Assembly (NCBI GenBank): GCA_008632985.1
Contig: QPGO01000105.1
Span: forward strand, 248,001 to 274,223
DNA from: Psammoneis japonica
Taxonomy: Eukaryota
Length of the DNA stretch: 26,223 nucleotides
Reading direction: 5' to 3'
In this document: in pieces, positions 2,286-24,649 of the stretch
Layout of the letters: each line of letters starts with the position of its first letter
How positions within the stretch are numbered: position 1 is the stretch's first letter
The notes under the pieces: generated by a model
Database searches by the model: none
Told to the model about the DNA's origin: nothing
The model's input: only the letters and a program-made list of their open reading frames with translations
Translations under genes and position numbers: made by a program

Positions 2286-3304
2286 ACAAACAGCCCTCTC
2301 TCTACGTCTGAGGACAACTTTGAGTTGTTATTGTTGTCAAGGGACCTACGATTCTAATGAGAGATCTTGGCGCGGTTATTGTCAAGAAATGTATCGCATT
2401 GGTCTTTCTGACGTTCTCACCCTTTGCGCAATACAGTATACGGATGGCCACGATGTGAGCCGCTGCGTTTATTGCGATAGCCAAGGCAGAGTGTCGTCTT
2501 TTTGGACCCTTTGTTGAATCAGATTGTGGTATTGCAGTCGCCGCCGTCGCTTGTGTACGGTAGTCCAAATGTCTGATGTTGCTTCTTGGACGATATAGAA
2601 GAAGTGCCTTCTTCTTGTTGTCCGCTTTCCAGTGTGGTGAATGGAGTTTTTGATCTTTGTACACATGTGACTGCTTCGTGTTAGACGTTATTTCGAATGG
2701 TTTTGTAGATACTATAGCTTTTTTAGTTTGCCGCCTACCTACGTTTCAAATAGTTTCGAGTGCTGCTACTTACTGTACCTCGTGACCACGTCTGGCATTT
2801 TTTGTGAAGCTGCTACTAAGCACGAACAAACTGCCAGCACTATGATTATCTACTCTAGTACTATAAAGGAGAGAGACAGAAACCTCCTTTCGCGTCATTG
2901 AAAAACATGTAGGAGTTGTTCCTACCACGTGCAAGGCAGTGCTTTGTGTTTTTTGTAGCCTTAACTCTCGTCATTGCGGACCGTCGCAAAAAGTGAGGCG
3001 CCGCAAAGCAGAGCATCAACAGGCAGACCGTGCAACAAGCAGACTGTGACACTGTAAGTTAGACTGTGTGGGTGTGTCATGCATACCCTATTCCATCGTC
3101 GCTGAATTTTTTCGTTTGCCTTCCTTTTGTTTCTGCGCGGCCGACGTGGAGTGCTGTTGGCACCGCAGCGCAACCAGCATCGTGGGGCATTGCTGTTGTT
3201 ATTGTAGTGAATCGCTGTCGTTGTTGCCATAGCACACACAGAACTACTCTCGATATTACTCAACAGCTCTAGAGTAAACACACACACAAGCCATCTCTAT
3301 CATC

Positions 3305-5158
3305 ATGACGACACTATACGTTCGTTTGAGTTCAGGCACTCGCTTTTCCGTCGTGACGGACGTGCCGCTGGAAGAGTGTACCGTGTTGCAGTTGAAACAA
3401 CTCATACAAGAACAAGACGACGGTTGTGAGGTGGAACGTCAACGCTTGATTTACAAGGGACGCATCATGAGTGATGACGATCGTACCCTGAGTGATTATG
3501 GTGTCGTTGCCGAATCGACGCTTCATCTCGTCAAGAGCGCTGCTGCTTCAGGAGGAAGTGCTACGACTCGTACGACTGCAACAGCAACAAGCACTAGTAC
3601 TACGACGAGCAGCACTCCTTCTTCTTCTTCTGCTACTGCTTCTACTACTACTACTTCGCCTCCTGCCTTTCCAGGCATGTTTGGAGCTTCTAGTAGCAAC
3701 ATGGCAGCCATGCAACAAGACTTGATGCAGAACCCGGAACGCATGAGTGAAATGATGAATTCCCCAATCATGAATTCTCTCATGAACAATCCCGAATTGC
3801 TTCGCACCATGTTGGAATCCAATCCCCAAATGCGTGCTGCCATGGATTCCTCTCCGGAATTGAGAGAAATGCTCAACAATCCCGATGTATTACGACAGAG
3901 TATGGAAATGATGCGCAACCCCAATGCCATGCAACACTTGATGCGTTCGCAAGATTTGCAATTGTCGCAACTCGAAAACATGCCGGGTGGATTTGCGGCA
4001 TTGTCGAGCATGTATCGGAATGTACAAGAACCCATGATGGATGCGGCGGCGGGTGCGGGTAGTAATGAGAGTACTACTACAAGTTCCAATACGAATGCAG
4101 CAGCGGCTGCGGCTCCGGGTTCGGCCATGCCCAATCCGTGGGCAAGCTCTACTAGTAGCAGTAGGAGTAGTACTGCTGCGAGTGCTGCTGCTTCTACAAG
4201 CGGCAGCAATGCCAATGCGGCTAATCCTTTTGCTGCTTCGGCTGGTACCAATCCGTTTGCAGCTTCGGCTGGCATGAATCCGTTTGCTGCAGCGTCTGCT
4301 GGTGCTTCCAATCCCTGGGCACAACAACAGCAGCCTTCTCTGGAACAAATGGAACAAACGTTGCAACTCATGGAAAACAATCCCGCCATGAGGCAAATGA
4401 TGGATCAATTGTTATCGGATCCGCAGTTTGTTCAGCAAGTCATTGCCAGCAATCCAGCCTTGCAACAGAATCCCATGGCGGCCCAAGCCCTCCAACAACA
4501 TCCCGAAATGATTCGCAATTTATTCTCCAATCCCCAAAATTTACGAGCCATGATGCAAATGCAAAACGCCATGAATACGTTACAACAGGGTGGAGTAATG
4601 TTTCCTGGAAGTAATAATAGTGGAATGAGTGGTAGTGGTGGTAATATGGGTACGAGTGGTGCTAGCAATGCCAATCCAAGCAATGCTGGCGCGAGTGGTG
4701 GATTGGACTTTTCGTCCTTGTTGAATCAACAATCGTCGTCGTCGTCGTCGTTTGGCGGTTCAGCTCCTCCGTTTGGTGCTGCTGTACCACCCTTTGCGTC
4801 GTTTCAAGCTCCTCCCCAACAACAGACACCACAAGAACGTTTTCGTGTACAGTTGCAATCGTTAAACGACATGGGTTTCCAAGATGAGACGGAAAATATT
4901 CGTGTTTTACAACAATGTCATGGCAATGTCAATCGTGCCGTGGATGTGTTAATCATGGGAAGCAGTACTACAGAGGAGGAGGAGACTACTGGTACTGCTG
5001 CTGGTGCTGATTCTTCTACTATTGCAGCGGCGACTAGCAGCAGTCAAGACAACGCCAATGCTCCGGCTGCTACAACTAATCAAGAAGAAAAGAATGACGA
5101 GCAACCACCGGTGAACAATGACAAACCCAAGGATAGTGTCGACAAGAAAAACGACTGA
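3305..5158 (+). CDS. DSK2: Ubiquilin/Dsk2-family ubiquitin receptor (UBL - STI1 repeats - UBA), 617 aa
   Basis: N-terminal UBL (TVLQLKQLI..RQRLIYKGRIM.DD.TLSDYGV...STLHLVK), Met/Asn/Pro-rich STI1 repeats (MQNPE, MNNPELLR, LSQLENMPGGFAAL), PNPW motif, and C-terminal UBA (PQERFRVQLQSLNDMGF.....NIRVLQQCHGNVNRAVDVL). Single uninterrupted ATG-TGA frame. Confidence 0.95.
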   Translation: MTTLYVRLSSGTRFSVVTDVPLEECTVLQLKQLIQEQDDGCEVERQRLIYKGRIMSDDDRTLSDYGVVAESTLHLVKSAAASGGSATTRTTATATSTSTTTSSTPSSSSATASTTTTSPPAFPGMFGASSSNMAAMQQDLMQNPERMSEMMNSPIMNSLMNNPELLRTMLESNPQMRAAMDSSPELREMLNNPDVLRQSMEMMRNPNAMQHLMRSQDLQLSQLENMPGGFAALSSMYRNVQEPMMDAAAGAGSNESTTTSSNTNAAAAAAPGSAMPNPWASSTSSSRSSTAASAAASTSGSNANAANPFAASAGTNPFAASAGMNPFAAASAGASNPWAQQQQPSLEQMEQTLQLMENNPAMRQMMDQLLSDPQFVQQVIASNPALQQNPMAAQALQQHPEMIRNLFSNPQNLRAMMQMQNAMNTLQQGGVMFPGSNNSGMSGSGGNMGTSGASNANPSNAGASGGLDFSSLLNQQSSSSSSFGGSAPPFGAAVPPFASFQAPPQQQTPQERFRVQLQSLNDMGFQDETENIRVLQQCHGNVNRAVDVLIMGSSTTEEEETTGTAAGADSSTIAAATSSSQDNANAPAATTNQEEKNDEQPPVNNDKPKDSVDKKND

Positions 5159-5466
5159 GCAGGTCTTCAGTTTGTGTAAAAGTATAGTGGTAGTTGCATG
5201 GACAATAATGGCATTGCCTCTAGTCCTCTCGTATGACATTGTGTGCATTTCCACACGATTTGGAATATCAAAACACTCTCCGCACGTTGTTTTTGTCGTC
5301 ATTGCACTCTGGCTTGCATCACCACAAGTCATCAGCGTTGCATTCAAGACATCCTTCTGAGTCGGCACCCTTGCCTCTCTTGTCGCAATTTCTTTCTGTC
5401 GAAACAAATCACCTTGTCATGCCATTTTGCCATGTCCTCATGTGCTTTTACAACAACAGCACACTG

Positions 5467-5890
5467 AAGGCCACGTCATTGTTGTCCATGTAACTTCCAC
5501 CACACTTTGACACAAAATGAAGAGCTGTTCAATTGTTTTTCTTGTCGACACTGTCCTTGGGTTTGTCATTGTTCACCAGTGGTTGCTCGCCATTCTTTTC
5601 TTCTTGATTGGTTGCATTGGGCGGAGCATTGGCATCATCTTGACTGCAATGTCGTGGCAATGTCAATCGTGCCGTAGATGTCTCAATCATGGCAGGCAGC
5701 AGTGCAGAGGTGGAGGAGACGGGCGCTGCTGCTGCTGCAGCGGCGACTGGCAGCAGAGTGTCTTGAATGCAATGCTGTTGACTTGTGGCGATGCATGCAA
5801 GCCAGAGAGCAATGACGACAAAAATGACGTGCTGAGAGTGTTTTGATGTTTCAAATCCTGTGGAAATGTGCACAATGTCATGCAAGAGGA
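5467..5890. pseudogene. Scrambled, degenerate duplicate of the ubiquilin 3' CDS and 3' flank
   Basis: 5467-5647 is an inverted copy of ~5040-5220. 5650-5757 is a direct copy of ~4916-5043 with an internal deletion. 5757-5890 is an inverted copy of ~5224-5352. Confidence 0.85.
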
Positions 5891-5894
5891 TGAA

Positions 5895-6970: not shown

Positions 6971-7210
6971 AGAGTGATCCACTGTCTGCCTCCCGAAAAG
7001 GCATCGACGAACCTGCGTCAGCATTCCTGTCTGTCTGCCCGCTGAAATCAATGCCTGCAGATGCCAATGAGAAAATGATTTGAATTCAAAGGGGTTGCTG
7101 CCCTGTCAGTTAGCTGCAGTCATCATTGCCTCCCCATCTCATCTGCTGTTTTTTGCGCTGTCATTCATCTGCTTGTTGTTGCCTTTGCAAGTTGTTTCAA
7201 TCTAACAACC

Positions 7211-8522
7211 ATGTCCGTTGCCCCACCTGCTGTTGACCTTGCAACTGACGGCTGGCATGATGACAACAATGGCAATGATCTGCCAGCCTTTTTGCGCAGA
7301 GTTGCTGACGACGACGATGATGATGATGAGGATGATGTGCCAGCTCTTTTGCGCAGAGTTGCTGATGACGACGACGATGATGATGATGAGGAGGACGATG
7401 ATGAAGAGCAGCAGCCTGTTGATGAAGAGCAGCAGCCTGTGGATGTCTGCAATGCATCGAACATTTTAGATGCTGTCTTCTGTGGTCTTGACGATGATTG
7501 GTCTACTCCCATTGTGTTTCCCATCTCTGTTGTCCATTCCAAAGGCGATCCACCCTCTTTTTTCATGGACACCAACATGAGCGAGTTCCTTGGCAAAGAT
7601 GGGCCTGGCACTGCTCTTCATCGACACGCGCATGTCTGCTTTGACACAGCGAAGTGCCCCCCACTGCCCGCTTCTATAAAGCCTTTCTCCAAGGCTGACA
7701 CAAGCCATGCCACTTTGTCAGAGGATTTCTGAAAATGTGTGGCAAGCAATGGCTTTGAGGCAATTTCCAATGGTGGTGGCCGCATCATCTGTTCCTGCCA
7801 TGTCCCGCACTGCCAGAAACCCAAAAGACGCGATGCAACAGTTCCCTCAACATCACACAGGAAAACATCCCTTCGTGATGATCGCTGTCGCAACAATCGC
7901 AAACACGGCAACAAGAAGCATCCTCGACAGCAGCAGACAACCAAGGCCCCAAATCTTGAGGACACGTGTGGTTGGAACATTCGCATCCAAGCTGACGCTT
8001 TTGGGCATTTCTTCAAGTGTGGCACTGGCCGTGGTTTTCATTGTAATCACCACCAACGACTTCCCGAAGAGATTTCCAAGAAGATTCGTCACCTGAGTTC
8101 ATCCACCCTCTTGTCTATGAAGCGAATGAGAAAGGGTCGCTTGGGGGCAGGCCATGCATGCAACTGCATTCTTGCCAATGAGGAATGCTTCCTGTCAAGG
8201 CAGCAGGTTCGTTGCGTCATGCGACAGGCTGACAAGGAAGAGTTAACCCCATTCCTACCCTCTTCTGAAGACACCGCTTTGGATGACAGCATCCTGGAGC
8301 TTCAGAGGTTTTTTCAGAGTCGTGAAGACATTGAATGCTCTGTTCTTGCAAGTGGAGCTAACGCTGTGCAGACGCCAACCCGGGAACGCAACCTGCGTTT
8401 CCAGTCCTCGTTGCTTTTCAATGAATCTCATGTCAATGGAGAAAGGGAGATCCAGAACCTCGAGGAACTTTGTTCCGAGGTGGTCGACCAGTGCAGGCGT
8501 GAGAGGGAAGCCGCCCAGCTTG
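7211..8522 (+). pseudogene. MULE transposase copy 1, N-terminal part (acidic repeats + FAR1/WRKY-like Cys/His DNA-binding region)
   Basis: ATG 7211 (MSVAPPAVDL). Premature TGA at 7730 (CGA in copy 2). Motif TCGWNIRIQADAFG.FFKCGTGRGFHCNH. Collinear with copy 2 up to the LTR insertion at ..GCCCAGCTTG. Confidence 0.75.
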
Positions 8523-8889
8523 TGCAGCATGCGACTGTTGTGTGCATGTTTATGATTGCACATTATTTGTGTGTCAATCGTACCACAGTCGTGGATGCGT
8601 ACAAAGGACAGAACGATCACACAGAGTTGATCGGATGTCGAGAATTGCAAATACGATCGATTGACGATGTTGACATCTTGCGTGTCAATGGCAATCGTAT
8701 CCGGACAATCTGTTGTCACGAATATATTCTCCGAAAGGCCTTTTGTCTGTAGAAGCAGTGCAGAAGCTTTAGGCCATTGAGAACTCGTTCGGAGAAACCA
8801 AAAATCACAGAGCAAAATTTAATCTCATAATTTCCACTTTTCGTACACTATTCTACTTTCGTTTACACTCGTTCTTCGAGCATAGTGCA
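8523..8889 (+). repeat. 5' LTR (367 bp, TGCA...TGCA)
   Basis: Direct repeat of 12882-13248 with TG...CA termini and an imperfect 10-bp terminal inverted repeat. Confidence 0.93.
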
Positions 8890-8943
8890 TTGTGCATACA
8901 CACCACAGAAGGTAAAAAGCACGGAAAATGAAAATTTTAACTA

Positions 8944-11900
8944 ATGTGCCTTTGCAAATTCTTCTATGAACAGGAACGAATCGCATCAGTTCTGCTGGAA
9001 TCGATTTCCGAGCGGAAGAAGCTCAAGCCGAGCAGTGCCTCAAGATGGAACGCTGTTTTTCGTCTACCAGACAAAAGGATTCGCTCTAATGCGGTCTGTT
9101 CCAAGTGTCTCAGGACCAAGGACTCTACAAGAACACAGCATTGTCGAAACATCCACACCAAGTCATGGTTGGGTAGAATTTCAAGTCTTGAGTCGATCAG
9201 ATCCGAGAAACACGTCTGCCATGCAAGGAGAGACTATTGGAGAGTTTTTTGAGACCGAATTGATGATCCTCGAGTCCAAGGAGCAAGAGGGAATCGTTGG
9301 AAAGTACCTCAAGCGTCTCACAACACATGTCCTCCGAGGAAATGCACTTCAGAATCAGGGAAATTATTTTCGAGACGACCTGAAGAAACCAGAGCTGCTT
9401 GACAGCGAGAAAGCCTCTGATAGACCCAAGAGGTCAATGATGAGAGTCCACGCGACCCTCAGATGGATTCTAAGTCGAATCTAGCGGGAAACCGAGCGCT
9501 GATTTATCAGCTATCACTCGCACCGCAAGGATGGCAGCATCAGTCTACTGTCCAAAACAATCAACCATTGCAACTCATCCTTGATGAACTGATTAAGTTT
9601 TGAGTCATCTAAAGGTCGTTCATGACGTCCGTGACGAAAAAACATGTCAACTCAGGCTCTGATAGCGCAGTTGGTTCCAAAATAAAAAAGGTTCCAAATT
9701 TGGTTCCAAAAATGGTCTCCCATATGGTACCACCACAATCCAAAGTGAATGAAAGGTCCAATCTTTGAAAAAAGAATACCTGCATCACGGATTAAAGCCA
9801 TTCTGAAAATGAATTAGCGAAAGAGTGCAAGGGTGGCTCTAAAAGAGACCCAAAAATACGACGCTCTAAATGGCAATCGCACGCGAACGTGACGAGAGCA
9901 GAAACACCTCTGTGAAAGAGGAATTGAACTGAACTATGAACTAGGCAGTTCACAAAAACAATTAAAGCGAGTTCCTCGATAAAGGAACGTAAAAATAAGA
10001 GCGAAAATTAAGACTCTAAAACGCTTAACGAATGAAACTGTCAATTTAGAAAAATTGACCCGATCGAGTCCGATCAAAAAATCACACCGCTCAAGGAGCA
10101 CAACGCGTTACAGGACGTCTGGAAACCCAGAAAAAGCATCACAGTATGTTGTACGAGTCCTATTCTCGCTGTCCACATGACTGCTTCTCTGAGAAAAGCA
10201 AAAAATAAGCTTCTACGTGTTCTCTCGATAAAGAACATCGTCAGCCCATGATTTTACGCAACATCATGCGAAGGTTGAGAACCAAAAAATCCGCCACCAA
10301 AAACTTGGGAAACCAAGGGTGAGCTCTTTACGACTGACAGTAAACACCGAATTCAGTTCTCACTGTGCGAAATTTAAGGCACACTGATGTTCAAACAGTG
10401 TGTGTTGAAAACACTAAATTTTCTTCAGGTTCAAATGATGTGATCATGGGACGCGACTTAATGTCCAGTCCTACAAGTCACATTGGACTACGCAAATGAA
10501 GAAATCTAATGGGAAGAAGCAATTACCTTATGAAGAATGTTCACACACTCTTCGATGCCGATGTTTTCAAGCTGAAAACCGATCACATTGAAAAATGTGA
10601 CGCCGTGAATAGAGTTAATAACGGAACCAATGGTCCTCGACTCACATTGTCACGCCATCGATCTTAATCAAGTGACAACTACGGCGATGCATCTAACCCA
10701 AATGAACACAACCAACTCAATCTTCTTCTTAAGAGGTTGAAATCGTTTTGAAAAGTTCCTCAGACGAATGCATGGGAAGCATCAGTGGATCTCATCGTGG
10801 AAAATCTGACGCGATTCCACGACGCGTGAGAACCTTCTCCTATCATAGTCTTTGGAGGCGTCCAATCAAAAGGAGTTTGACCTATTATGAAAGATTGAAG
10901 TCTTAAGAATGAAATTACTCTGAACAAGTCGCTCTGAGACTCATTGTCCAAAGAAAACAGGTCGAGTTCGACCGCATCCGACACTCAGAAGCTTAGTATA
11001 AGGTTCATACAGGTGGTGTATCCTTTACCCAATATTCAGGAAATACTATTGAAGCAAGAACGTTTCATATATGCAATCTATTTGATTCAAACATGGAATG
11101 CCACCATGTCAAATAAAAAAAGCACACGTCGTGCTCACACGAAAATCATGCCGTGGGGAGAAAATGAGTACTATGGACTTCCAATGAGAATCTATAGAGC
11201 CCCAGATATTTTTATACAACACTTGAGTGAACTCATAACAGGTTTGAAGTTGTCAGAACGACTATATGTGATCGTTTGTGCCTGACAAAAGTGACTTCAA
11301 AATATCACCTGTACAAGTAACAGCTTAATACGGCATTCAAACGACTAGAACAGTTGCTTAGAAGGTTAACAACAAAAGTCCTTCACTATTTAACTTGAAA
11401 TAAACTATCAAGACTTCCATACGTAACGATATGCAATCGATTACAAAGAAAATGGAGGCGATTCAAGCAATCGCAACACGAGAAAAACGTAAAGAACACT
11501 ACGACATCTCGTTGTCATACGTTACTATTATCGAGACATGTAGTCTCAACGATCTCCTGTACAATACTAGCCAAATTCACCTCAATAAAGGTCAAACGGC
11601 AAAAGTACAAGTACGGAACGAAAAGTCTCGGAAAATATGGAGCGTATCAAATCAAAAACTATATTGTTATCATACACGGATTTCAATATTATACGTTACA
11701 ACGGAAAAAAGAACTTCTGTCCATAGTGAAAACACTTATAAAATTCCGAAATATACTGTTTGGCCAACAGATTTATACATATACGGATCATAAGACACAA
11801 CGGACAAAGTCATACGTTGACAACTTCAGTCCCGAATTAGAATACAACGAGGGCAAGGCGAACATCGTCGCGATAGACGCGATCAGCCGACTTACTATAG

Positions 11901-12870
11901 AAAATTGAATCCTACGACAATGTCCTACCGTTAAAACGGGATAAAGACATTCCCTCCAAATTGTCGGACGCGACATATCATACGAACACTTTTCGTGGAG
12001 GCGAGCGAGATCGAAAAATGCTCATGTCACAAGGATAAAATCGCCTTTTTAAAGGACGATTTAGGAAAAAACAGTGACAGATTGGTATACATTATACGTA
12101 TCCACTTCACACTGGCAAAAGACAATCTCACAACACCCGTACGGTTGTATTGTACAATGTACGAGGCAAGACATTAAAATATACATCATGTCGACACACG
12201 AGATGTGCCAAAGATCTAGAAAAAGAAAAGAAAAATGGACATTTATCCACTTAGTGCACGAAACCAGTGCCTTCGGAATGACAAAATAACACCGGTATGT
12301 CAGAAAGAAACGTCCAAATAACGATTAAAATCCAACTGATAGATGGTTGAAGTACAAAAAAAAAATCCATAATGGAATTCATAACCATCACAGGATTGAT
12401 TATCAAGACGAAATAATGGTCATAATATCTTTGACCATCGTTTATTATTACTTATGAAACGTGGTAGTGCAGCAGAGCAATATGGCATATAAAGTAAGCC
12501 CGCCAAACTACATGAAATCCACAAGTAAGTAAGTGAACGCCACAATTAAGAGCGTACATTAAGTACTGAGCACGATGCTATGTACAATCGATATCAGGAA
12601 AAACACTTACTCCAGGACAATTAGTCCTTGTGTTCATATCAACAAGAACGTCAATGAGAATACTCGACGTAATACTATATATATACATATTAAGTGAGAA
12701 ACAAACAATGTCACTCTCAAAAGACATTCGGAAATTGGAACGGCTCTATATTGCCTATACAAAACAACAACAGTCATTGCTAATGGCACAATACAGTGAA
12801 AGTGGAGACATTATTGACACTGTCGATGTCCGTCGAATAATCCACTTACAAATGACTCTAATGTGCAATT
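8944..12870 (+). pseudogene. Decayed Gypsy gag-pol
   Basis: Fragments across frames: gag-like NALQNQGNYFRDDLKKP (~9340-9390); protease tail IMGRDLM (~10444); RT YPLPNIQEILLK and PWG..Y..LPMRI..APDIF (~11020-11215); RNase H EKELLSIVKTLIKFRNILFGQQIYTYTDHK and GKANIVA.DAISRL (~11705-11895); integrase NPQ..ERVH..L and TPGQLV (~12515-12630). Many stops and indels. Confidence 0.8.
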
Positions 12871-12881
12871 AGGGAGGCGAA
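12871..12881 (+). promoter_or_regulatory. Polypurine tract of the Gypsy element
   Basis: AGGGAGGCGAA immediately precedes the 3' LTR start TGCAG at 12882. Confidence 0.75.
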
Positions 12882-13248
12882 TGCAGTATGCGACTGTTAT
12901 ATACATATTTATGATTATATATTATTTATATGTCAATCGTACCACAGTCGTGGATGCGTACAAAGGACAGAACGATCACACAGAGTTGATCGGATGTCGA
13001 GAATTGCAAATACGATCGATTGACGATGTTGACATCTTACGTGTCAATAGCAATCGTATCCGGACAATCTGTTGTCACGAATATATTCTCCGAAAGGCCT
13101 TTTGTCTGTAGAAGCAGCACAGAAGCTTTAGGCCATTGAGAACTCGTTCGGAGAAACCAAAAATCACAGAGCAAAATTTAATCTCATAATTTCCACTTTT
13201 CGTACACTGTTCTACTTTCGTTTACACTCGTTCTTCGAGCATAGTGCA
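12882..13248 (+). repeat. 3' LTR (367 bp)
   Basis: Begins TGCAGTATGC and ends GCATAGTGCA (9/10 inverted match); followed by the TSD CTTG. Confidence 0.93.
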
Positions 13249-13252
13249 CTTG

Positions 13253-15244
13253 GTCCTGAGGACAACCTCTTTGTCGGTGCTGCTTGGACACTCAAGGGCG
13301 AGACACGATTGTTTCGCCAAATGCCACATGTGATTAAAGTGGACGCCACATCTCACACCAACAACGAGAAAAGGCCATGCCTGACTTTCTCCGTCCGTGC
13401 GCCAAATGGCTCTTGCATTGTTTTCCTCCGAATCTTTCTTCCTGATCAAACACAGGGGACGTTTTGGTGGGTGTTTCAGGTGGTGCTACCCACTCTACTT
13501 GATGCAGACACACTGCGGCGAATCAAGTTGGCATTGACGGATGGAGACTCCCAAGAAATCTCGGAGTTGCGCAGTGCAATTCAAGTCTACATGCCGGATG
13601 TCTTCCAAGGATGTTGTGGCTGGCATGTTGTGGAAAAGGGATGGTTGCGTCACTGTCCTGGTGAGACCTGTGTGTCTCCTGGCCAGAGGCGTGAGACCTG
13701 CAAGCAATTTGTTGCCGCAGTCAAAGCCTGGCTGCATTCATTCATGCACCCTGGAGGGTGCGAGAATGAAGATGAACTCAAGGTCTCCAAGTTGTTGCTC
13801 ATCATGTTTCTGCATTCCCCAAGAGTCCTCCAGATGTGCGACGGCATCGAGTCAACCGTTCAGCGCGAGACAAGGTGTGGGCCTGGGAGAACTGCTGTGC
13901 CTTCCACCGCAAGAAATTCCTCCGCCATCATGAGGAAGCAAACAGTTCTAGCCACGAGGGTGCCAACTTTGGCATGAAGAACCATTCTGCTCCAGTGCTG
14001 CCATTGCAGAACTTGGCCACCAGCGCCATGAACTTTGCCATGCAATCGGACGTAAAGGTTGCAGAGCTGCACGCAGAAAGCAACCGCATGGCAACAACTA
14101 AATGCCTCTGGTCTAATCTGCCTGCAGCGGACCATGTCGTCACCATGTGTGAGGGTGTCATTGCTGAATGGTGGAAGCATCAACATGACTTCCACGTGCG
14201 GTGCTGCGGCAAGGAGGATGGCGAACACCCGACATGGGAGGCAGTCCACAAGAAATCCAATGAAGCTCCATCGTCAAACGAAGAGGAAGAAGCCAATCCT
14301 TTCTTTTCCAAAATGCCCAAGTTTCGAAGAGTGCAAAAAGTGAAGCTAGATGCAGAGGGTGTGCTTCGCTGCAGCTGCGGAGAGTTCCAGAGAATGGGCA
14401 TTGGCTGCACGCACTTCCTTGCGGTTGGCCAGCACGAACTTGGCAATGCACATTTGGGATTCACACACCATGATGTTTCCTTTGTTTGGCGGCGCAAGCA
14501 CTTGGATTGTTTGATTCCATCCTCGACAATGATGTTCGAGGACCATGCCTGCCTGAATGGTGGCAGCCAGCACCTCAACCAACTTCAAGCACACCGCCGG
14601 ATGAATCCGTTTTTGACAAACCGCAGGATGTTTGTCACTCACTCCACAATTGCAGTTCCGATCAAGCAAACCGAGCACTGCGTTGTGTGGACCCTGCACA
14701 ATTGGGTCTAAGCGCAATTGGTTGCTCCCAATTGACCAATGTCGATGCAAGCCAACGTGACCAACTGGGAGATGTGTTCAATCTTGAAGACGATGAGCAC
14801 AGTGCAGACGGCGATCTGTTTGCTCTCGAAGAATCAGAAATGAACAGTTCTCCTCAAGACCCTCCTGCAAATGTCACTCCCACAAACATGCGACAGGTGT
14901 TGGCCCCCAAGTTGTCGACTCTGTGTGGTCCATGCGAGTCGGAGAACATCCATCAAATGGAAGCACCCGACTTATCTCACGTTGTTAAATCAATCGATGA
15001 TCTAATTGTGGACATCCGAGGAAAGTTTCACACACACCGTGATGCGCAAGAGACCAATGACACAAGCAGTGAGGGGCCGCGATGGGTGTCCAACTGTTCT
15101 GAACGTGACTCCAAGAAGCGACGCACTCATGTTTGTAGAAATGGTCTAAATCTCTGTTGGCCACCCACTTGTTTGGTGCCAGACTTTCTTGCACAATTGC
15201 AAATGGATTGGAGACAATCTGTTGGAACTCAAACTAGATCTTAA
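13253..15244 (+). pseudogene. MULE transposase copy 1, DDE core + SWIM zinc finger
   Basis: IKVDATSHTNNEKRP (first D), LTDGD (second D), CGWH (CxxH), NSSSHEGANFGMK (E region) and LRCSCGEFQRMGIGCTHFLAV (SWIM). Frameshift near 13865 and a ~43-bp deletion at 14503 relative to copy 2. Confidence 0.88.
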
Positions 15245-17363
15245 TTTTGAGTGCATCGTAGAGGACCTTCTTGCAAAAGGCCTCAGTCTCTCAACTGAGA
15301 GGGCGCAAACTGTTCACTGGGCATGGAACAGACAGCCGCTGCTTGGGATTTATGAGTTCTCGAGGACACTCATGTGACTGTAACTCAACGACGGACGAGG
15401 GGAGGTTGCCTGTGTCAGCAAGTTTCAGGTGCTCAACCAACTCATCCCAGATCACTTGCGAGTCACCGAATGGGATTGCATCGAACATTTGGTGGCAAGC
15501 ACCTGCATTCGTGCGTCCAGGCAGGTGAACTGCTGTTTCGTCATCACCGGTCGTTTCGAAAATAACGGAGTCCCGAAAGTGCGTGTCCTTAAAGAGCCTC
15601 TCCTCAAGTTTGCCCTGCTTCTTGCCCTCACACAGGCAGGACTCTGTGTGCCTTGTTCTCCTGAACGTGGCCACTCCCTTCTCTGTCTTGAGCCGTTGAA
15701 GTAGAGNNNNNNNNNNNNNNNNNNNNNNNNNNNNNNNNNNNNNNNNNNNNNNNNNNNNNNNNNNNNNNNNNNNNNNNNNNNNNNNNNNNNNNNNNNNNNN
15801 NNNNNNNNNNNNNNNNNNNNNNNNNNNNNNNNNNNNNNNNNNNNNNNNNNNNNNNNNNNNNNNNNNNNNNNNNNNNNNNNNNNNNNNNNNNNNNNNNNNN
15901 NNNNNNNNNNNNNNNNNNNNNNNNTTGTAGACTTTCAACTGATCTGCTTGGTTTGGAGTCCCATTCTTGGAAAGGGCACGGACAAAAAGGCAAGCCGTGG
16001 AGGTAAGAGACACCTCATTCTGCCATTGACGAAATGGCACAAGCTCTGGGTCGGGCAACTGACCCCATCGTTGGAAGGTCATTTGGCCACCCCGACCACC
16101 AGTCCTCTCCCTGAATGTGTTGAACAGAAAAATGATGAGCCTGGAAACATGACATCCAAACTTTTCGTTCACCATGTCCCTCCTTAACTTCCTTGGAGGG
16201 ACCAGCAGAAGAATCCAACTGGCGACACCAAGGAAGCAGGGTCCAGGTGCATGGCAATGAAAAGCATGGTGCACCGACTGCAATTCAATGCAGTTGAGGT
16301 TGAACTGCACACCCAACCGAACAATTGAGTCACAAACAATCATGGCGAACCAATCAGGGTCAAGATTGCAGTGGGTGCGATTGGCCGGGAACCCTGGAAT
16401 CCACTCGACTGCATCGCCGGCATCTCGCAGGCTGTTGCTGATCTTGAGTCTTGACACGTCGAATCGATCACAAGCTCTCACCAGGTCGTCGAGAATTGCA
16501 TCCTGGTTGCGCCTGTTGCAAAAGAGGTCATCAATGGATTTCCTCATCTGTCCATTGACTGCATGGCGACGGGGGACACCATCAGGGCCATCCTTGATCT
16601 TGGAAACACCACAGACAGGTTCGATGTCACCATTTTTGTCGTCGACGTGGGTGTCACAGTCCTCCTTCTTCTCTGGTGGAGCCGGCCTTGAGAGCGAACA
16701 ACAAATGACTTCAATCACAACAGAGGGATGGAGAGTGCCAGCAAATTCTTGTTGGCGCGTGGGGTTGAGACGATCCTCAAAGGGATTGTCGCCATCCACA
16801 AATGGCGCATCTTTGGCAAGCACTTTTTTGACATTTTGGAGACAGCAATCATCGCACCAATTGCAGTTGGGTCGCACTCCGCATCGTCTCCAACACTCGG
16901 AGAACAACAGGTGCCCTGCCGCAGGGACGGAACGCAGTGACCGTCTGGTGAGTCATCCCGGTCTCCAGACTGCCCACCACAATGACCCGCGTCGCAGCAG
17001 TTCGTTGAGCGCTGACAAATGGTTGTGGTTAAAGCACCGTCGGGGTTCTCGGTTTTCTTGGGGATTGGGTTGAAACGGCAAGCATGGGACATCAAGCGGT
17101 CAAACGAATCAAAATCAATTTCATTGACGATGTCGGAGAGTTCGTCACCCTTGCCCAACAGAACAAGTAAATCATTGGCATGATTTTTGTTCGGATCATG
17201 CAATTGCAGACCTGAACCGGATGTCGAATGGGAGTCAAGGCAGTTCCCAACCGAAAAAAGCAAAATTGCCAGGAGCGTCTGGCAGTGAGGAAAAACAGCA
17301 GTTTTCAGAAGGTGGGCTTGTTCTGGTGCTTGCGGCCAAAAGTGAATTCGATGAACATGATGC
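15234..17363 (-). pseudogene. MULE cargo gene B, copy 1 (5'-truncated, +2 frameshift near 16825, premature stop at 15291)
   Basis: Reverse complement of 18634-20761. ORFs 16715-17263 and 15291-16907 translate to the same protein as 17543-19924 and 19937-20761. Confidence 0.75.
15707..15924. other. N-run (218 bp) inside cargo gene copy 1
   Basis: Run of n in the sequence. Confidence 0.99.
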
Positions 17364-17620
17364 TGTCAAGTGATCCTGACGTTGTCAGTTGGGTTTGTCA
17401 ACCACTTCAGTTTGAACAATTTACTTCTCCTTACATTTACTCTTCAGCATGTGTGGTCCATTAAAAACTGTTCAGCAGTCATCATTCGAATTCTCAATGA
17501 CTGGCATTTGGTCAAAAATTTGAATTTTCGGTCGCCTCAACGGTGCACACAACCATCACACCGGCACAATGTTGTTTTGCGACGACGTTTTTCATGCCGC
17601 CGATGAAGCCACCGAACCGC

Positions 17621-17698
17621 GTAAGTGTCGCTGTGTGGTTTTTTTTACCTGTCAAGCCATCTTACAGTGTCTCACACTGTGCTTGTTGTTTTTCCCAG
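17621..17698 (+). other. Probable spliceosomal intron in cargo gene B
   Basis: GTAAGT donor, CTCAC branch-like motif at ~17671, pyrimidine tract TTGTTTTTCCCAG acceptor; 78 bp, phase 0. Confidence 0.65.
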
Positions 17699-18014: not shown

Positions 18015-18110
18015 ACTCGTTGGCTTGTGCCAGTGACTCGGGGAAGAAGACCGCCGGCTTGGACTCGTTGGCTTGTGCCAGTGACTCAGGGAAGAAGACC
18101 ACCGGCTTGG
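18015..18110 (+). repeat. 48-bp tandem duplication (SLACASDSGKKT[A/T]GL x2)
   Basis: ACTCGTTGGCTTGTGCCAGTGACTC.. starts at 18015 and at 18063. Confidence 0.95.
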
Positions 18111-20078
18111 AACCCACCATGTTGGAGCAAGAGCCGACTTCTCCACTGGCAAATGCTGGTGTGATCAAATGCTCTGTGGCGAACCGCCAGAAAAAATCTC
18201 TGTCATCGTCAAGTTCTTTGACATCCTCTCAGGATTTGCTGACTTCTCCACTGGTGAATCCCGGTGTGATTGATCACTCTGCGGCGAATTCCCAGAAAAT
18301 GTCGCGGCCATCGTCGATTTCGTCGACGTCTCATGAGTCAACGTCTACACTGTTGCCACCTGCTGGTGTCAGTGACCGCTCTGCAGCGAACCGATCGTCG
18401 CCATTGTTGGATTCGAAACTGTCGTCGATGCCGGTTCTCTTGCCAAAAGAGGCTTTGTCCTCTCGCCAAGAGGTGTTCAACCTCTTGCTTTCATTGTCAC
18501 CCTCCCAGGAAGATGACGATTCTATTTTTAATCACGGCTTTTTGGTGGAGGAAATGAAGCCCTCCTTCTTTCTGCTTCCCAAGGGAAACAGAAATGAGTT
18601 GGTTTCTTTTGGGAAACTGTCGGCCGAGCGCTGGCATTGTGTTCATCGAATTCACTTTTGGCCGCAAGCACCAGAACAATCCTGCCTTCTGAAAACTGCT
18701 GTTTTTCCTCACCACCAGACGCTCCTGGCAATTTTGCTTTTTTCGGTTGGGAACTGCCTTGACTCCCATCCGACATCCGGTTCAGGTCTGCAATTGCATG
18801 ATCCGAACGAAAATCATGCCAATGATTTACTTGTTCTGTTGAACAAGGGTGACGAACTCTCCCACATCGTCAACGAAATTGATTTTGATTCGTTTGACCG
18901 CTTGACATCCCATGCTTGCCGTTTCAACCCAATCCCCAAGAAAACCGAGAACCCTGACGGTGCTTTAACCACAACCATTCGTCAGCGCTCAACGAACTGC
19001 TGCGACGCGGGTCATTGTGGTGGGCAGTCTGGAGACCGGGATGACTCACCCGACGGTCACTGCGTTCCGTCCCTGCGGCAGGGCACCTGTTGTTCTCCGA
19101 GTGTTGGAGACGATGCGGAGTGCGACCCAACTGCAATTGGTGTGATGATTGCTGTCTCCAAAATGTCAAAAGCACTTGCCAAAGATGCGCCATTTGTGGA
19201 TGGTGACAATCCCTTTGAGGATCGTCTCAACCCCACGCGCCAACAAGAATTTGCTGGCGCTCTCCATCCCTCCATTGTGATCGAAGTTGTTCGTTGTTCG
19301 CTCTCAAGGCCGGCTCCACCAGAGAAGAAGGAGGACTGTGACACCCACGTCGACGACAAAAATGGCGACATCGAACCTGTCTGTGGTGTTTCCAAGATCA
19401 AGGATGGCCCTGATGGTGTCCCCCGTCGCCATGCAGTCAATGGACAGATGAGGAAATCCATTGACGACCTCTTTCGCAACAGGCGCAACCAGGATGCAAT
19501 TCTCGACGACCTGGCAAGAGCTTATGATCGATTCGACGTGTCAAGACTCAAGATCAGCAACAGCCTACGAGATGCCGGCGATACAGTCGAGTGGATTCCA
19601 GGGTTCCCGGCCAATCGTACCCACTGCAATCTCGACCCTGATTGGTTCGCCATGATTGTTTGTGACTCAATTGTTCGGTTGGGCATGCAGTTCAACCTCA
19701 ACTACATTGAATTGCAGTCGGTGCACCATGCTTTTCATTGCCATGCACCTGGACCCTACTTCCTTGGTGTCGCCAGTCGGATTCTTCCACCAGCCCCTCC
19801 AAGGAAGTTAAGGAGGGACGTGGTGAACGAAAAGTTTGGATGTCATGTTTCCAGGCTCATCATTTTTCTGTTCAACACATTCAGGGAGAGGACTGGTGGT
19901 CGGGGTGGCCAAATGACCTTCTGACGATGGGGTCAGTTGCCCGACCCAGAGCTCACGCCGTTTCGTCAATGGCAGAATGAGGTGTCTCTTGCCTCCGCGG
20001 CTTGCCTTTTTGTCCGTGCCCTTTCCAAGAATGGGACTCCAAACCAAGCAGATCAGTTGAAAGTCTACAAGCGTTTTT

Positions 20079-20351
20079 NNNNNNNNNNNNNNNNNNNNNN
20101 NNNNNNNNNNNNNNNNNNNNNNNNNNNNNNNNNNNNNNNNNNNNNNNNNNNNNNNNNNNNNNNNNNNNNNNNNNNNNNNNNNNNNNNNNNNNNNNNNNNN
20201 NNNNNNNNNNNNNNNNNNNNNNNNNNNNNNNNNNNNNNNNNNNNNNNNNNNNNNNNNNNNNNNNNNNNNNNNNNNNNNNNNNNNNNNNNNNNNNNNNNNN
20301 NNNNNNNNNNNNNNNNNNNNNNNNNNNNNNNNNNNNNNNNNNNNNNNNNNN
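20079..20351. other. N-run (273 bp) inside cargo gene copy 2
   Basis: Run of n in the sequence. Confidence 0.99.
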
Positions 20352-20750
20352 AGTCCCACCTGTGTGAGGGCAAGAAGCAGGGCAAACTTGAGGAGAGGCT
20401 CTTTAAGGACACGCACTTTCGGGACTCCGTTATTTTCGAAACGACCGGTGATGACGAAACAGCAGTTCACCTGCCTGGACGCACGAATGCAGGTGCTTGC
20501 CACCAAATGTTCGATGCAATCCCATTCGGTGACTCGCAAGTGACCTGGGATGAGTTGGTTGAGCACCTGAAACTCACTGATGCAGGTGACCTCCCCTCGT
20601 CCGTCGTTGAGTTACAGTCGTGTGAGCATCCTCGAGAACTCATAAATCCCAAGCAGCGGCTGTCTGTTCCACACCCAGTGAACAGTTTACGCCCTCTCAG
20701 TCGAGAGACTGAGGCCTTTTGCAAGAAGGTCCTCTACGATGCACTCAAAA

Positions 20751-23700
20751 TTAAGATCTAGTTTGAGTTCCAACAGACCATCTCCAATCCATTTGTGGTT
20801 GCACAAGAAAGTCTGGTGTTAAACAAGTGGGTGGCTGACAGAGATTTAGACCATTTCTACAAATTTGAGTGCGTCGCTTCTTGGAGTCACGTTCAGAACA
20901 GTTGGACACCCATCGCGGCCCCTCACTGCTTGTGTCATTGGTCTCTTGCGCATCACGGTGCATGTGAAACTTTCCTCGGATGTCCACAATTAGATCATCG
21001 ATTGATTTGACAATGTGAGATGAGTCGGGTACTTCCATTTGATGGATGTTCTCCGACTCGCATAGACCACACAGAGTCGACAACTTGGGGGCCAACACCT
21101 GTCGCATGTTTGTGGGAGTGACATTTGCAGGAGGGTCTTGAGGAGAACTGTTCATTTCTGATTCTTCGAGAGCAAACAGATCGCCGTCTGCACTGTGCTC
21201 ATCGTCTTCAAGATTGAACACATCTCCCAGTTGGTCACGTTGGCTTGCATCGACATTGGTCAATTGGGAGCAACCAATTGCGCTTAGACCCAATTGTGCA
21301 GGGTCCACACAACGCAGTGCTCGGTTTGCTTGATCGGAACTGCAATTGTGGAGTGAGTGACAAACATCCTGCGGTTTGTCAAAAACGGATTCATCCGGCG
21401 GTGTGCTTGAAGTTGGTTGAGGTGCTGGCTGCCACCATTCAGGCAGGCATGGTCCTCGAACATCATTGTCGAGGATGGAATCAAACAATCCGTCCAGACC
21501 CTCAACATGACGGTCCCCGTTGAACGCATGGTGAAAGTGCTTGCGCCACCAAACAATGGAAACATCATGGTGTGTAAATCCCAAATGTGCGTTGCCAAGT
21601 TTGTGCTGGCCAACCGCAAGGAAGTGCGTGCAGCCAATGCCCGTTCTCTGGAACTCTCCGCAGCTACAGTGAAGCACACCCTCTGCATCTAGCTTCACTT
21701 TTTGCACTCTTCGAAACTTGGGCATTTTGGAAAAGAAAGGATTGGCTTCTTCCTCTTCGTTTGACGATGGAGCTTCATTGGATTTCTTGTGGACTGCCTC
21801 CCATGTCGGGTGTTCGCCATCCTCCTTGCCACAGTGCCGCACGTGGAAGTCATGTCGATGCTTCCACCGTTCAGCAATGATGCCCTCACACATGGTGACG
21901 ACATGGTCCGCTGCAGGCAGATTAGACCAGAGGCATTTAGTTGTTGCCACACAGTTGCTTTCTGCATGCAGCTCTGCAACCTTTACATCCAATTGCATGG
22001 CAAAGTTCATGGCGCTGGCGGCCAAGTTCTGCGACGGCAGCACTGGAGCAGAGTGGTTCTTCATGCCAAAGTTGGCACCCTTGTGGCTAGAATTGTTTGC
22101 TTCCTCATGATGGCGGAGGAATTTCTTGCAGTGGAAGGCACAGCAGTTCTCCCAGGCCCACACCTTGTCTCACGCTGAACAGTTGACTCGATGCCATCGC
22201 ACATCTGGAGGACTCTTGGGGAATGCAGAAACATGATGAGCAACAACTTGGAGACCTTGAGTTCATCTTCATTCTCGCACCCTCCAGGGCACATGAATGA
22301 ACACAGCCAGGCTTTGACTGCGGCAACAAATTGCTTGCAGGTCTCACGCCTCTGGCCAGGAGACACACAGGTCTCACCAGGACAGTGACGCAACCATCCC
22401 TTTTCCACAACATGCCAGCCACAATGTCCTTGGAAGACATCCGGCATGTAGACTTGAATTGCACTGCGCAACTCCGAGATTTCTTGGGAGTCTCCATCCG
22501 TCAATGCCAACTTGATTCGCCGCAGTGCATCTGCATCAAGTAGAGTGGGTAGCACCACCTGAAATGCCCACCAAAACGTCCCCTGTGTTTGATCAGGAAG
22601 AAAGATTTGGAGGAAAACAATGTGAGAGCCATTTGGCGCACGGACGGAGAAAGTCAGGCATGGCCTTTTCTCGTTGTTGGTGAGAGATGTGGCATCCACT
22701 TTAATCACATGTGGCATTTGGCGAAACAATCGTGTCTCGCCCTTGAGTGTCCAAGCAGCACCGACAAAGAGGTTGTCCTCAGGACCAAGCTGGGCGGCTT
22801 CCCTCTCACGCCTGCACTGGTCGACCACCTCGGAACAAAGTTCCTCGAGGTTCTGGATCTCCCTTTCTCCATTGACATGAGATTCGTTGAAAAGCAACGA
22901 GGACTGGAAACGCAGGTTGCGTTCCCGGGTTGGCGTCTGCACAGCGTTAGCTCCACTTGCGAGAACAGAGCATTCAATGTCTTCACGACTCTGAAAAAAC
23001 CTCTGAAGCTCCAGGATGCCGTCATCCAAAGCGGTGTCTTCAGAAGAGGGTGGGAATGGGGTTGACTCTTCCTTGTCAGCCTGTCGCATGACGTGACGAA
23101 CCTGCTGCCTTGACAGGAAGCATTCCTCATTGGCAAGAATGCAGTTGCGTGCATGGCCTGCCCCCAAGCGACCCTTTCTCATTCGCTTCATGGACAAGAG
23201 GGTGGATGAACTCAGGTGACGAATCTTCTTGGAAATCTCTTTGGGAAGTCGTTGGCGGTGATTGCAATGAAAACCACGGCCAGTGCCACACTTGAAGAAA
23301 TGCCCAAAAGCGTCAGCTTGGATGCGAATGTTCTAACCACACGCATCCTCAAGATTCAGGGCCTTGGTTGTCTGCTGCCGTCGAGGATGCTTCTTGTTGC
23401 CTTGTTTGCGATTGTTACGACGGCGATCATCACGAAGGGATGTTTTCCTGTGTGATGTTGAGGGAACTGTCACATCGCGTCTTTCGGGTTTCTGGCAGTG
23501 CGGGACACAGCAGGAACAGATGATGCGGCCACCACCATTAGAAATTGCCTCAAAGCCATTGCTTGCCGCACATTTTCGGAAATCCTCTGACAAAGCGGCA
23601 TGGCTTGCATCAGCCTTGGAGAAAGGCTTTGTAGAAGCGGGCAGTGGGGGGTGCTTCGCTGTGTCAAAGTGGACATGCGCATGTCGATGAAGAGCAGTGC

Positions 23701-24099
23701 CAGGCCCATCTTTGCCAAGGAACTCGCTCATGTTGGTGTCCATGAAAAAAGAGGGTGGATCGCCTTTGGGGTGGACAACAGAGACGGGAAACACAATGGG
23801 AGCAGACCAATCATCGTCAAGACCACAGAAGACAGCATCTAAAATGTTCAGTGCATTGTGGACATCCACAGGCTGCTGCTCTTCATCAACAGGCTGCTGC
23901 TCTTCATCATCGTCCTCCTCCTCATCACATCATCATCGTCGTCATCAGCAACTCTGCGCAAAAGAGCTGGTGCATCATCCTCATCATCATCGTCGTCGTC
24001 GTCAGCAACTCTGCGCAAAAAGGCTGGTGGATCATTGTCGTTGTTGTCATCATGCCAGCCATCAGTTGCAAGGTCAACAGCAGGTGGGGTGACGGACAT
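20751..24099 (-). pseudogene. MULE transposase with SWIM domain, copy 2 (no insertion; frameshifts near 23925, 23340 and 22170; putative catalytic E->K)
   Basis: ORFs 23848-24099, 23333-23869, 22061-23197 and 20751-22163 carry VDATSLTNNEKRP, LTDGD, CGWH, NSSHKGANFGMK and CSCGEFQRTGIGCTH. Confidence 0.88.
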
Positions 24100-24649
24100 G
24101 GTTGTTAGATTGAAACAACTTACAAAGGCAACAACAAGCAGATGAATGACAGCGCAAAAAACAGCAGATGAGGTGGGGAGGCAATGATGACCGCAGCTAA
24201 CTGACAGGGCAGTGACCCCTTTGAATTCAAATCATTTTCTTGTTGGCATCTGTAGGCATTGATTTCAGCGGGTAGACAGACAGGAATGCTGACGTAGGTT
24301 CGTCGATGCCTTTTCGGGAGGGAAATGGGCAATCGTCCAGCTGCGTGGGTAGCTCTTTATAAACTGTGTAGGAAATGTACCAGGGTTTGTGTAGAATTTG
24401 ATAACGACACAATTCCATTTTGATGGCGACAAGTAGAAACCTACATGGTTTTCCAGTACAAATTTGATAGCGACGCCACGGACGGAATCATTGTCAACGT
24501 GCCAATCACCGCATTATCACAGGTTTTCGATCATAGGGAATTCCTTATTTGGCGCTGAATTTCCTAGACAAGGAAATATAAGAAAATAAGAAAAGGAAAA
24601 AACAATTGGTGATTCAATGCGTGGTTGCAACCGTCATGAACCACTCATC

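Follow-up and report, generated by a model that had tools for sequence, protein, structure and literature searches.

The window analysed here, a stretch of 26,223 nucleotides from contig QPGO01000105.1 (assembly GCA_008632985.1, Psammoneis japonica; positions 248,001 to 274,223 of the forward strand), contains a host ubiquilin gene, a displaced copy of the 3' end of that gene and a 5.7-kb inverted duplication of a Mutator-like element (MULE), one arm of which is interrupted by a retrotransposon with a pair of long terminal repeats (LTRs; Table 1). The differences between these two LTRs, together with the composition of the DNA around them, point to a process that converts TpA dinucleotides into TpG or CpA in integrated DNA. 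The duplication pairs 6989-8522 plus 13249-17363 with 24321-18634, and its arms reach beyond the MULE open reading frames (ORFs). Both arms encode a MULE transposase domain (PF10551, E=2.7e-9 and 2.3e-9) followed by a SWIM zinc finger (PF04434, E=4e-4 and 2e-4), the order of domains by which such elements are recognized. An exhaustive protein search recovered 953 MULE homologues at E<=1e-3, unlike a word-indexed protein search with the MULE ORF, which found no relatives.

The interrupting element combines direct LTRs with TG...CA termini, a target-site duplication, a polypurine tract and a reverse transcriptase-RNase H region, the features of a Ty3/gypsy-type LTR retrotransposon, and the Pol proteins matched by its two enzyme relics carry the RVT_1, RT_RNaseH and rve domains. 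The set expected of an autonomous element (intact gag, protease and integrase, and a tRNA primer-binding site) was not found. Specifically, the 29 plus-strand ORFs of at least 37 aa in the element contain no gag, protease or integrase Pfam domain, the only match being a weak one to RNase H; the integrase core has no tblastn match in the element, where a single weak match of 28 aa to a Pol C terminus was obtained (E=0.004); ARAGORN detected no tRNA gene in the window with which a primer-binding site could be compared; and a translation of the whole interior runs through 62 stop codons. As judged from its sequence, this copy is non-autonomous. The CTTG target-site duplication, together with the uninterrupted empty site in arm 2, indicates one clean insertion, so that the two LTRs are true sisters. 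Reverse transcription gives rise to two LTRs that are identical at integration, the premise from which the preliminary description of this locus had started.

The alignment of the LTRs (8523-8889 with 12882-13248) is gapless over 367 bp and holds 15 mismatches, 15 of 15 being transitions, in agreement with a first count made by eye. At 12 sites the 3' copy reads TA where the 5' copy reads TG (9) or CA (3), and 10 of these 12 fall at LTR positions 6-49, within the first 50 bp as initially described. A further site, likewise noted beforehand, is of the reciprocal kind, with TA in the 5' LTR and TG in the 3' LTR at positions 327-328, 40 bp from the outer end; finally, the dinucleotide at 237-238 reads TG in the 5' LTR and CA in the 3' LTR. 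Thus, 13 of the 15 mismatches toggle a TA and the remaining two form one TG/CA double, a spectrum that is observed directly and that places every mismatch at a TpA-type site. The approximately 300 LTR positions outside TpA-type dinucleotides show no difference between the sisters, and all 21 CpGs are common to both copies, none having changed in just one. TA-destroying transitions make up 56 of the 367 possible on the 3' LTR, and the chance of drawing at least 13 such changes among 15 is P=1.9e-9. If TA is taken as ancestral, the tally becomes 13 events in the 5' LTR and two in the 3' LTR. The preliminary description had claimed a fast, context-specific process that acts at TpA-type sites only, leaves many CpGs unaltered and inflates LTR-based ages, and all of this holds for the pair. 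With 15 TpA-type differences against no others, the process would be much faster than the background. The whole of the 4.1% divergence is attributable to TpA-type changes, and the identity of the approximately 300 other positions marks the insertion as young, so that an age read from a molecular clock would come out at least several-fold too high.

Table 1 Features of the window that bear on the LTR pair and its surroundings.
Feature	Position	Strand	Remarks
Host ubiquilin gene	3278..5158	+	single ORF, TA-normal; polarity reference and source of the taxon placement
Copy of ubiquilin 3' end	5468..5890	-	inside TpA-free domain; 12 parental TAs read TG/CA
Arm 1, left of insertion	6989..8522	+	MULE N-terminal part, nearly TpA-free
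Target-site duplication CTTG, left copy	8519..8522	.	
5' LTR	8523..8889	+	367 bp, TG...CA termini; more edited copy, with TG/CA at 12 TpA sites, plus TG at 237-238
Edited tract, outer edge of 5' LTR	8528..8571	+	10 of 12 sister-LTR TpA sites lost, 7 to TG and 3 to CA
LTR element interior	8890..12881	+	degenerate, TA-normal (observed/expected 0.68); no gag, protease or integrase domain detected
Ty3/gypsy-type reverse-transcriptase relic	10941..11687	+	10 in-frame stops; tyrosine codons 15/249
RNase H relic	11705..11905	+	Pfam RT_RNaseH E=5e-5; 42-53% identity to Ty3/gypsy-type Pol proteins
Polypurine tract	12871..12881	+	directly upstream of 3' LTR; read from sequence
3' LTR	12882..13248	+	near insertion state; one TA->TG (327-328), CA at 237-238
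Target-site duplication CTTG, right copy	13249..13252	.	
Arm 1, right of insertion	13249..17363	+	MULE and SWIM domains at 13132-14711; nearly TpA-free; N run 15707-15924
Arm 2	18634..24321	-	uninterrupted MULE ORFs 22061-23332 and 20751-22169; 94.7-95.8% identical to arm 1; N run 20079-20351
Empty site, single CTTG	22786..22789	.	in arm 2 of the inverted duplication

Four independent lines of sequence comparison identify TA as the ancestral state and TA to TG or CA as the direction of change. The MULE ORFs of arm 2 encode one tyrosine in 423 aa and none in 472 aa, compared with a median tyrosine content of 3.3% in 40 aligned homologues, which were picked by eye for coverage from the top of the best 150 of the 953. 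In the six alignment columns with a tyrosine majority, the MULE protein of the window has two cysteines, one histidine, two phenylalanines, one leucine and no tyrosine; it keeps leucine at 17 of 20 columns and tryptophan at five of six. At column 80 (tyrosine in 18 of 33 homologues) the two arms read TGC and CAC, at column 344 (tyrosine in 31 of 38) they read CAT and TGT, and at column 256 (valine 17, isoleucine 9 and leucine 9 of 40) GTG and GCA. Such split codons imply the ancestors TAC, TAT and GTA, each arm having been hit on a different strand. The ubiquilin gene provides a polarity reference inside the window: comparison of its 3' end (4913-5364) with the copy (5468-5890) reveals 12 sites at which the parent has TA and the copy TG or CA, and only two of the reverse kind, an imbalance that again gives the direction TA to TG or CA; the TA counts of the two are 15 and 2. 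Finally, a third copy of the LTR family was found on a contig of sequencing run X1. In this copy the polypurine tract is joined to LTR position 33 through 35 letters, namely 3 letters and LTR positions 1-32, and 22 of the 32 equal the 3' LTR in register. At LTR positions 17-18, 19-20 and 25-26 the third copy has CA, the 5' LTR TG and the 3' LTR TA, and TA is the sole state one step away from both of the others. GC-biased gene conversion was rejected, as it would favour any change from A or T to G or C, yet no A or T outside TpA differs between the LTRs.

The LTR element forms a TA-normal island within TpA-poor surroundings. In 500-bp intervals, the observed/expected ratio (o/e) of TA is 0.00-0.10 at 5501-8000, 13501-15000, 16001-17000, 18001-18500, 19001-19500 and several other places, and in these TpA-poor flanks CA and TG o/e rise up to 1.4-2.0 and CpG o/e falls to 0.2-0.75. 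The longest TA-free run in the window measures 953 bp. In 1-kb intervals, TA o/e is 0.03-0.15 across most of the MULE and spacer region and 0.25-0.34 in four intervals. Host genes are spared, with a TA o/e of 0.48-0.72 and a CpG o/e of about 1 over positions 1-5000. On the left, the domain boundary lies at 5266-5675: TAs are spaced 3-57 bp apart as far as 5266, recur only at 5449, 5491 and 5675, and are then absent until 6628. Boundaries of the TpA-poor domains coincide with element boundaries. Over the 26 1-kb intervals, rhoTA correlates negatively with rhoCA+TG (Spearman -0.68) and positively with rhoCG (+0.69). Selection against TA was rejected as a cause, the elements being pseudogenised and frame-broken. 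As TA-free DNA lacks the stop codons TAA and TAG, the flanks abound in long overlapping ORFs in all frames, which are not evidence of genes; those at 17501-19924, for instance one of 807 codons, run in several frames over the spacer and arm 2 and, like the other flank ORFs, have no Pfam match.

A comparison of the two arms points to the same process at a more advanced stage, together with a second one. Transitions account for 205 of the 213 mismatches between the arms, nearly all of them within the set CG, TG, CA and TA. The mismatched dinucleotides comprise 49 TG/CA doubles, 63 cases of CG versus TG/CA and 28 of TA versus TG/CA, and the arms have 29 TA and 204 CG dinucleotides in common. By simple arithmetic on the 204 shared CG and the 63 CG versus TG/CA sites, uniform CpG decay would yield some 2-3 doubles, against the 49 observed. 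CpG decay in the arms is polarised from CG to TG/CA at the arginine columns 62 and 242. Two processes, TpA loss and CpG decay, thus appear to converge on TG/CA in the arms, and only the first of them would have touched the LTR pair. Among the 28 single losses, read on the MULE sense strand, 21 gave CA and 7 TG, with the same sign in both arms despite their chromosomal inversion, a bias that may reflect the strand rule described below or transcription; the outcome in the 5' LTR is biased the other way (9 TG and 3 CA) and the TG/CA doubles are balanced (25:24). In 15003-15590 of arm 1 and its mirror in arm 2, 11 TAs common to both arms stand amid TA-free neighbours, consistent with patchy editing. 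The N runs at 15707-15924 (218 bases) and 20079-20351 (273 bases) occupy mirror positions in the arms and represent the same sub-element, masked or unassembled. The stretch 24106-24650, which spans the outer end of arm 2, has a normal TA density (25 TAs in approximately 550 bp) between TA-free stretches and was either inserted more recently or spared from editing.

Several observations weigh against reading the LTR differences as TpA editing. First, the LTR double at 237-238 is ambiguous in origin because TG/CA doubles are not individually diagnostic; the preliminary description had reported this dinucleotide correctly, and its suggestion of an ancestral TA there remains ambiguous, as doubles can be CpG-derived. 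Such a case occurs in the MULE itself, at column 303 (arginine in 26 of 39 homologues), where the double between the arms goes back to a CpG. Second, a uniform per-site rate was rejected for the arms, as it does not jointly fit 29 shared, 28 single and 49 double sites; this misfit implies that editing must be patchy. Third, the edited letter is the family majority (53-87% of the depth in run X1) at seven listed mismatch places, so that a simple majority rule would make TA the derived state there, and at 9841, 9980, 10473 and 11443 the present copy has TA where 93-99% of the family depth has TG/CA. Both observations are nevertheless what would be expected if most old copies were edited and new insertions came from little-edited masters. 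In the interior, the private differences from the family (four TAs here, one TA in the family and CpG changes both ways) have no clear polarity. The preliminary description had named TG/CA at the LTR mismatch positions in other family members as a sign of a recombinant LTR or of reversed polarity. Taken literally, such members exist; the three states TG, TA and CA at single sites nevertheless argue for recurrent editing rather than for reversed polarity.

Under reversed polarity, the LTRs would have carried TG/CA at insertion, and C-to-T changes at CpA/TpG (and CpG), of the kind made by repeat-induced point mutation (RIP), would have created 12 TAs in the 3' LTR, spreading from the interior. 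All 15 differences can indeed also be written as C to T, the family majority at the seven places agrees, and GC drops and TA climbs towards the 3' half of the element. The rise stops, however, at a TA o/e of 0.8-1.0 with CA/TG at 1.2-1.3, which is not RIP-like, and CA and TG remain plentiful in the 120 bp that immediately precede the 3' LTR. Elsewhere in the window the composition is opposite to that expected, with TA/AT at 0.0-0.2 and (CA+TG)/(AC+GT) at 1.5-2.6 in the transposon domains. Moreover, the sites at which the third copy has CA and the 5' LTR TG would need CG ancestors, at three steps per site instead of two. None of the 21 LTR CpGs has changed, and the outgroup-polarised codons and the ubiquilin copy both run from TA to TG/CA. 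A second mutator, of which none was observed, would have to be invoked, and we regard reversed polarity as very improbable.

A different possibility is that gene conversion from an edited family copy overwrote the first approximately 170-240 bp of the 5' LTR, importing the differences as a block. Donors would be plentiful, given how abundant the family is in run X1, the one sample to contain the locus (contig depths sum to 3,700-76,000 over the element compared with 33 for locus-specific contigs, a depth that is not a copy number); both states are present among its copies at the listed places, and the differences are grouped at one end. The donor would have to be identical to the recipient but for the edits, with no difference at the approximately 300 non-TpA positions and the 21 CpGs, whereas the third copy departs from both LTRs at six non-TpA positions within 32 bp. 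The contrast between sisters that differ only at TpA-type sites and a relative that differs elsewhere too argues for action in situ rather than import. Besides, the unedited letter has frequencies of 47%, 13% and 34% in the family at 8558, 8559 and 8561, and such differing frequencies at adjacent places indicate site-by-site editing and mosaic copies rather than two haplotypes. The target duplication is also intact. We consider an imported block unlikely, and the action after integration is a direct observation of the sister comparison. A metagenome scan with a conserved LTR pattern returned no matches.

The distribution of the edits along the LTRs is uneven, and the clustering is itself directly observed. 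Normalised for available TAs, 10 of 12 sites at positions 1-50 of the 5' LTR have lost their TA compared with 2 of 16 beyond (Fisher p=3.3e-4), and three events lie in mid-LTR, at 157, 167 and 237-238. Clustering towards the outer edges, as first described, therefore holds strongly for the 5' LTR but not for the outer end of the 3' LTR, where one of six TAs in the last 67 bp has changed. It had been further proposed that the process encroaches from the flanking MULE, and an uninterrupted TA-free stretch (8360-8550) does extend across the left junction from the flank into the LTR. Encroachment was not established: arm 1 keeps TAs at 8044, 8116, 8244, 8256 and 8359, 165-480 bp from the junction (at four of these places arm 2 has CA instead), the 3' edge is nearly untouched, and other family copies are edited in this outer tract as well, the third copy on the other strand. 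The 5' edge is explained as well by a TA-dense tract that is intrinsically hot, or by one clustered burst, as it is by spreading, and a clustered burst in a TA-dense, easily melted tract seems somewhat more likely than encroachment from the flank at this one locus.

Systematic base-calling or assembly errors, for instance at modified bases, might in principle produce both TA-free stretches and LTR differences; there is no record of the platform on which the assembly and run X1 were sequenced, and run X1 may be the data set behind the assembly of the window. Contigs of run X1 match 5400-5892 and 5915-7019 without a single other letter, and contigs from two further runs, X2 and X3, have the version of the 3' LTR, the part that they cover showing exactly 12 differences. 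The arms, in turn, carry different outcomes (TG versus CA) at 49 sites as well as CpG-decay differences, and the domain boundaries fall at element boundaries, all of which makes an artefact scarcely credible.

Polarised edits that could be oriented on the mutated A number 55, the arms contributing 28, the LTRs 13 and the ubiquilin copy 14. The base 3' of this A is C in 25 cases, T in 15, G in 9 and A in 6, TAC being the commonest context. Of the 33 informative sites, 25 have a pyrimidine after the mutated A and 8 have a purine there (binomial p=0.0046), and the ratio has the same direction in the arms (15:5), the LTRs (5:1) and the ubiquilin copy (5:2). No particular base is preferred 5' of the T (chi-square p=0.36). 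The T[A]Y preference is thus observed directly, and on the opposite strand the motif 5'-T[A]Y-3' becomes R[T]A, which would suit a thymine-directed enzyme just as well. U-A-C is the context of the natural tRNA substrate of TadA/ADAT2. The motif resembles this context and fits the hypothesis of an adenine deaminase. By analogy with the proposal made for Bigelowiella natans, the chemistry would be an enzymatic, TadA/ADAT2-like deamination of adenine to hypoxanthine in DNA. Alternatively, an enzyme could attack the thymine of TpA, for example by TET/JBP-type hydroxylation to 5-hydroxymethyluracil followed by mispairing or faulty repair, with T changing to C in 5'-R[T]A-3'. TpA is self-complementary, so that T to C and A to G look alike in the sequence, and the strand rule may just as well be taken as a preference for a purine 5' of the mutated T. 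In dinoflagellates, 5-hydroxymethyluracil replaces thymine preferentially in TpA and TpC, which counts in favour of such a chemistry. The preference for T-A-Y (TAC in 25 of 55) with its resemblance to U-A-C, and the ADAT2 candidate put forward for the chlorarachniophyte B. natans (bioRxiv 10.64898/2026.01.13.699255), make an attack on thymine rather unlikely.

Taken together, we propose that, in a genome resembling those of pennate diatoms, one arm of an inverted MULE duplication received a single insertion of a non-autonomous Ty3/gypsy-type LTR retrotransposon, whose LTRs were identical at that point. A TpA-specific A:T to G:C hypermutation of chromosomal DNA would subsequently have made all 15 LTR differences, yielding TpG or CpA according to strand, with two events in the 3' LTR and 13 in the 5' LTR, where a single TA-dense outer tract took ten. 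The same process, acting for longer, would have stripped nearly all TpA from the MULE copies and from the captured host-gene fragment and so abolished their tyrosine codons. It would be confined to sharply bounded domains that are also CpG-decayed, which suggests targeting through silent, methylated chromatin and possibly a function in defence. We put the probability that post-integration TpA hypermutation accounts for both the LTR pair and its flanks at roughly 0.8.

The ubiquilin gene on which the host assignment is based is an intronless ORF whose best named matches are diatoms (35-46% identity). In a tree of 19 ubiquilin sequences it falls inside the diatom clade (100/100), with the pennates Fragilaria and Fistulifera (98/98); the pennate placement is that of this one gene. 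At the edge of the TpA-free domain lies a rearranged and mostly inverted duplicate of the 3' end of the gene, with 82-86% identity, that takes in the stop codon and sequence downstream of it; it may have arisen through capture of the Pack-MULE type or through rearrangement at the boundary of the insertion. An ORF of 746 codons (45-2285) contains an internal direct repeat (1-1300 versus 1050-2367, 73% identity) and has only sub-threshold Pfam matches (EAD1, RelB-like).

TpA-directed A:T to G:C hypermutation of foreign DNA has so far been reported in one preprint, of 2026, and from one chlorarachniophyte, Bigelowiella natans. In mutation-accumulation lines of B. natans, 231 de novo mutations arose, in only some of the lines, in two integrated viral regions, and 230 of them were A to G or T to C, all on TpA (Mettrop et al., bioRxiv 10.64898/2026.01.13.699255). 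The authors of that study propose an ADAT2-like enzyme as a candidate and find DDE and reverse-transcriptase domains enriched among TpA-poor coding sequences (bioRxiv 10.64898/2026.01.13.699255). Under their joint cut-offs (rhoTA<=0.43 and rhoCA+TG>=1.52, three consecutive intervals making a cluster; bioRxiv 10.64898/2026.01.13.699255), 6 of the 26 1-kb intervals of the window pass both, three of them consecutively at 5001-8000. The two cases have in common A:T to G:C transitions only at TpA, giving TpG or CpA by strand, confinement to foreign or mobile domains, and a long-term TpA depletion with CpA+TpG enrichment. They differ in host, which is diatom-like (Stramenopila) here and a chlorarachniophyte (Rhizaria) there; in target, a MULE, a host-gene fragment and an LTR retrotransposon as opposed to a giant-virus or virophage insert; in extent, the depletion being near saturation here (rho 0.03-0.15) compared with 0.45 in the region of B. 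natans derived from nucleocytoplasmic large DNA viruses; and in evidence, which is comparative here and consists of de novo mutations there. The coupling to CpG decay, the sister-LTR evidence and the T-A-Y rule belong to the present locus; the words 'trinucleotide', 'LTR' and 'diatom' do not occur in the accessible text of the preprint. The signature in our window matches the TpA hypermutation of B. natans, extended to a new host lineage and a new target class, ordinary transposons, and its new details are the in-situ evidence of action after integration and the strand rule. A full-text literature search returned no other report of TpA hypermutation, and none for diatoms or LTR pairs. Among the best 150 of the 953 MULE homologues, three have less than 0.5% tyrosine. 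One of them, P0194, from an environmental assembly (613 aa, 35% identical), contains a single tyrosine and has histidine at the conserved tyrosine of the W-x-Y-S-W motif; tyrosine-less transposase relics of this kind may be footprints of TpA loss in other organisms. A scan with a tyrosine-less JGI homologue gave 75 pattern matches, none of which was confirmed.

Among established systems, RIP of ascomycete fungi shares several traits with the present process: it is likewise a context-specific transition mutator that acts in place, on both strands and in clusters, inactivates repeated or mobile DNA, can affect sequence beside the repeat, and distorts dinucleotide indices and LTR dating. RIP, however, turns CpA/TpG into TpA by C to T and enriches TpA, whereas here TpA is destroyed by A:T to G:C changes and the RIP indices are inverted; on the values of TpA/ApT and (CpA+TpG)/(ApC+GpT) given above and the reversed polarity, membership in fungal RIP was rejected. 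RIP also depends on duplication, and the target in B. natans is single-copy. The editing of retroelements by APOBEC (C to U) and ADAR (A to I) resembles the present case in its deaminase-type spectrum, clustered hyperediting and inactivation of retroelements. Retroviral replication turns any editing of RNA or complementary DNA before integration into two identical LTRs. Editing by ADAR or APOBEC before integration was rejected here: there are 15 differences between the sister LTRs, and the edits extend to a DNA transposon and to the copy of a host gene, which identifies chromosomal DNA as the substrate. ADAR favours a 5' U, as cited in the B. natans preprint (bioRxiv 10.64898/2026.01.13.699255). 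Finally, the methylation-driven CpG decay of silenced transposons affects the same domains and feeds the same TG/CA pool, as the positive correlation of CpG with TA o/e reflects; unlike the TpA process, it cannot remove TpA, and it has left the LTR pair untouched (0 of 21 CpGs).

Several consequences follow for the study of such genomes, in which LTR-divergence dating, the building of repeat-family consensus sequences, RIP-index screens and ORF calling will all be misled. For the mechanism, the sister LTRs show integrated DNA, and not an RNA or cDNA intermediate, to be the substrate, the T-A-Y strand rule narrows the list of enzyme candidates, and the CpG decay of the affected domains points to targeting via silent chromatin. 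We tentatively suggest, at somewhat less than even odds, that diatoms possess a dedicated defence mutator of a polarity opposite to that of RIP. It would be a T-A-Y-specific, TadA/ADAT2-like DNA adenine deaminase that acts on silenced, CpG-methylated mobile DNA in chromosomal bursts and can spill over by tens of bases into new insertions, and it would be shared with chlorarachniophytes and hence old within the Stramenopila-Alveolata-Rhizaria assemblage.

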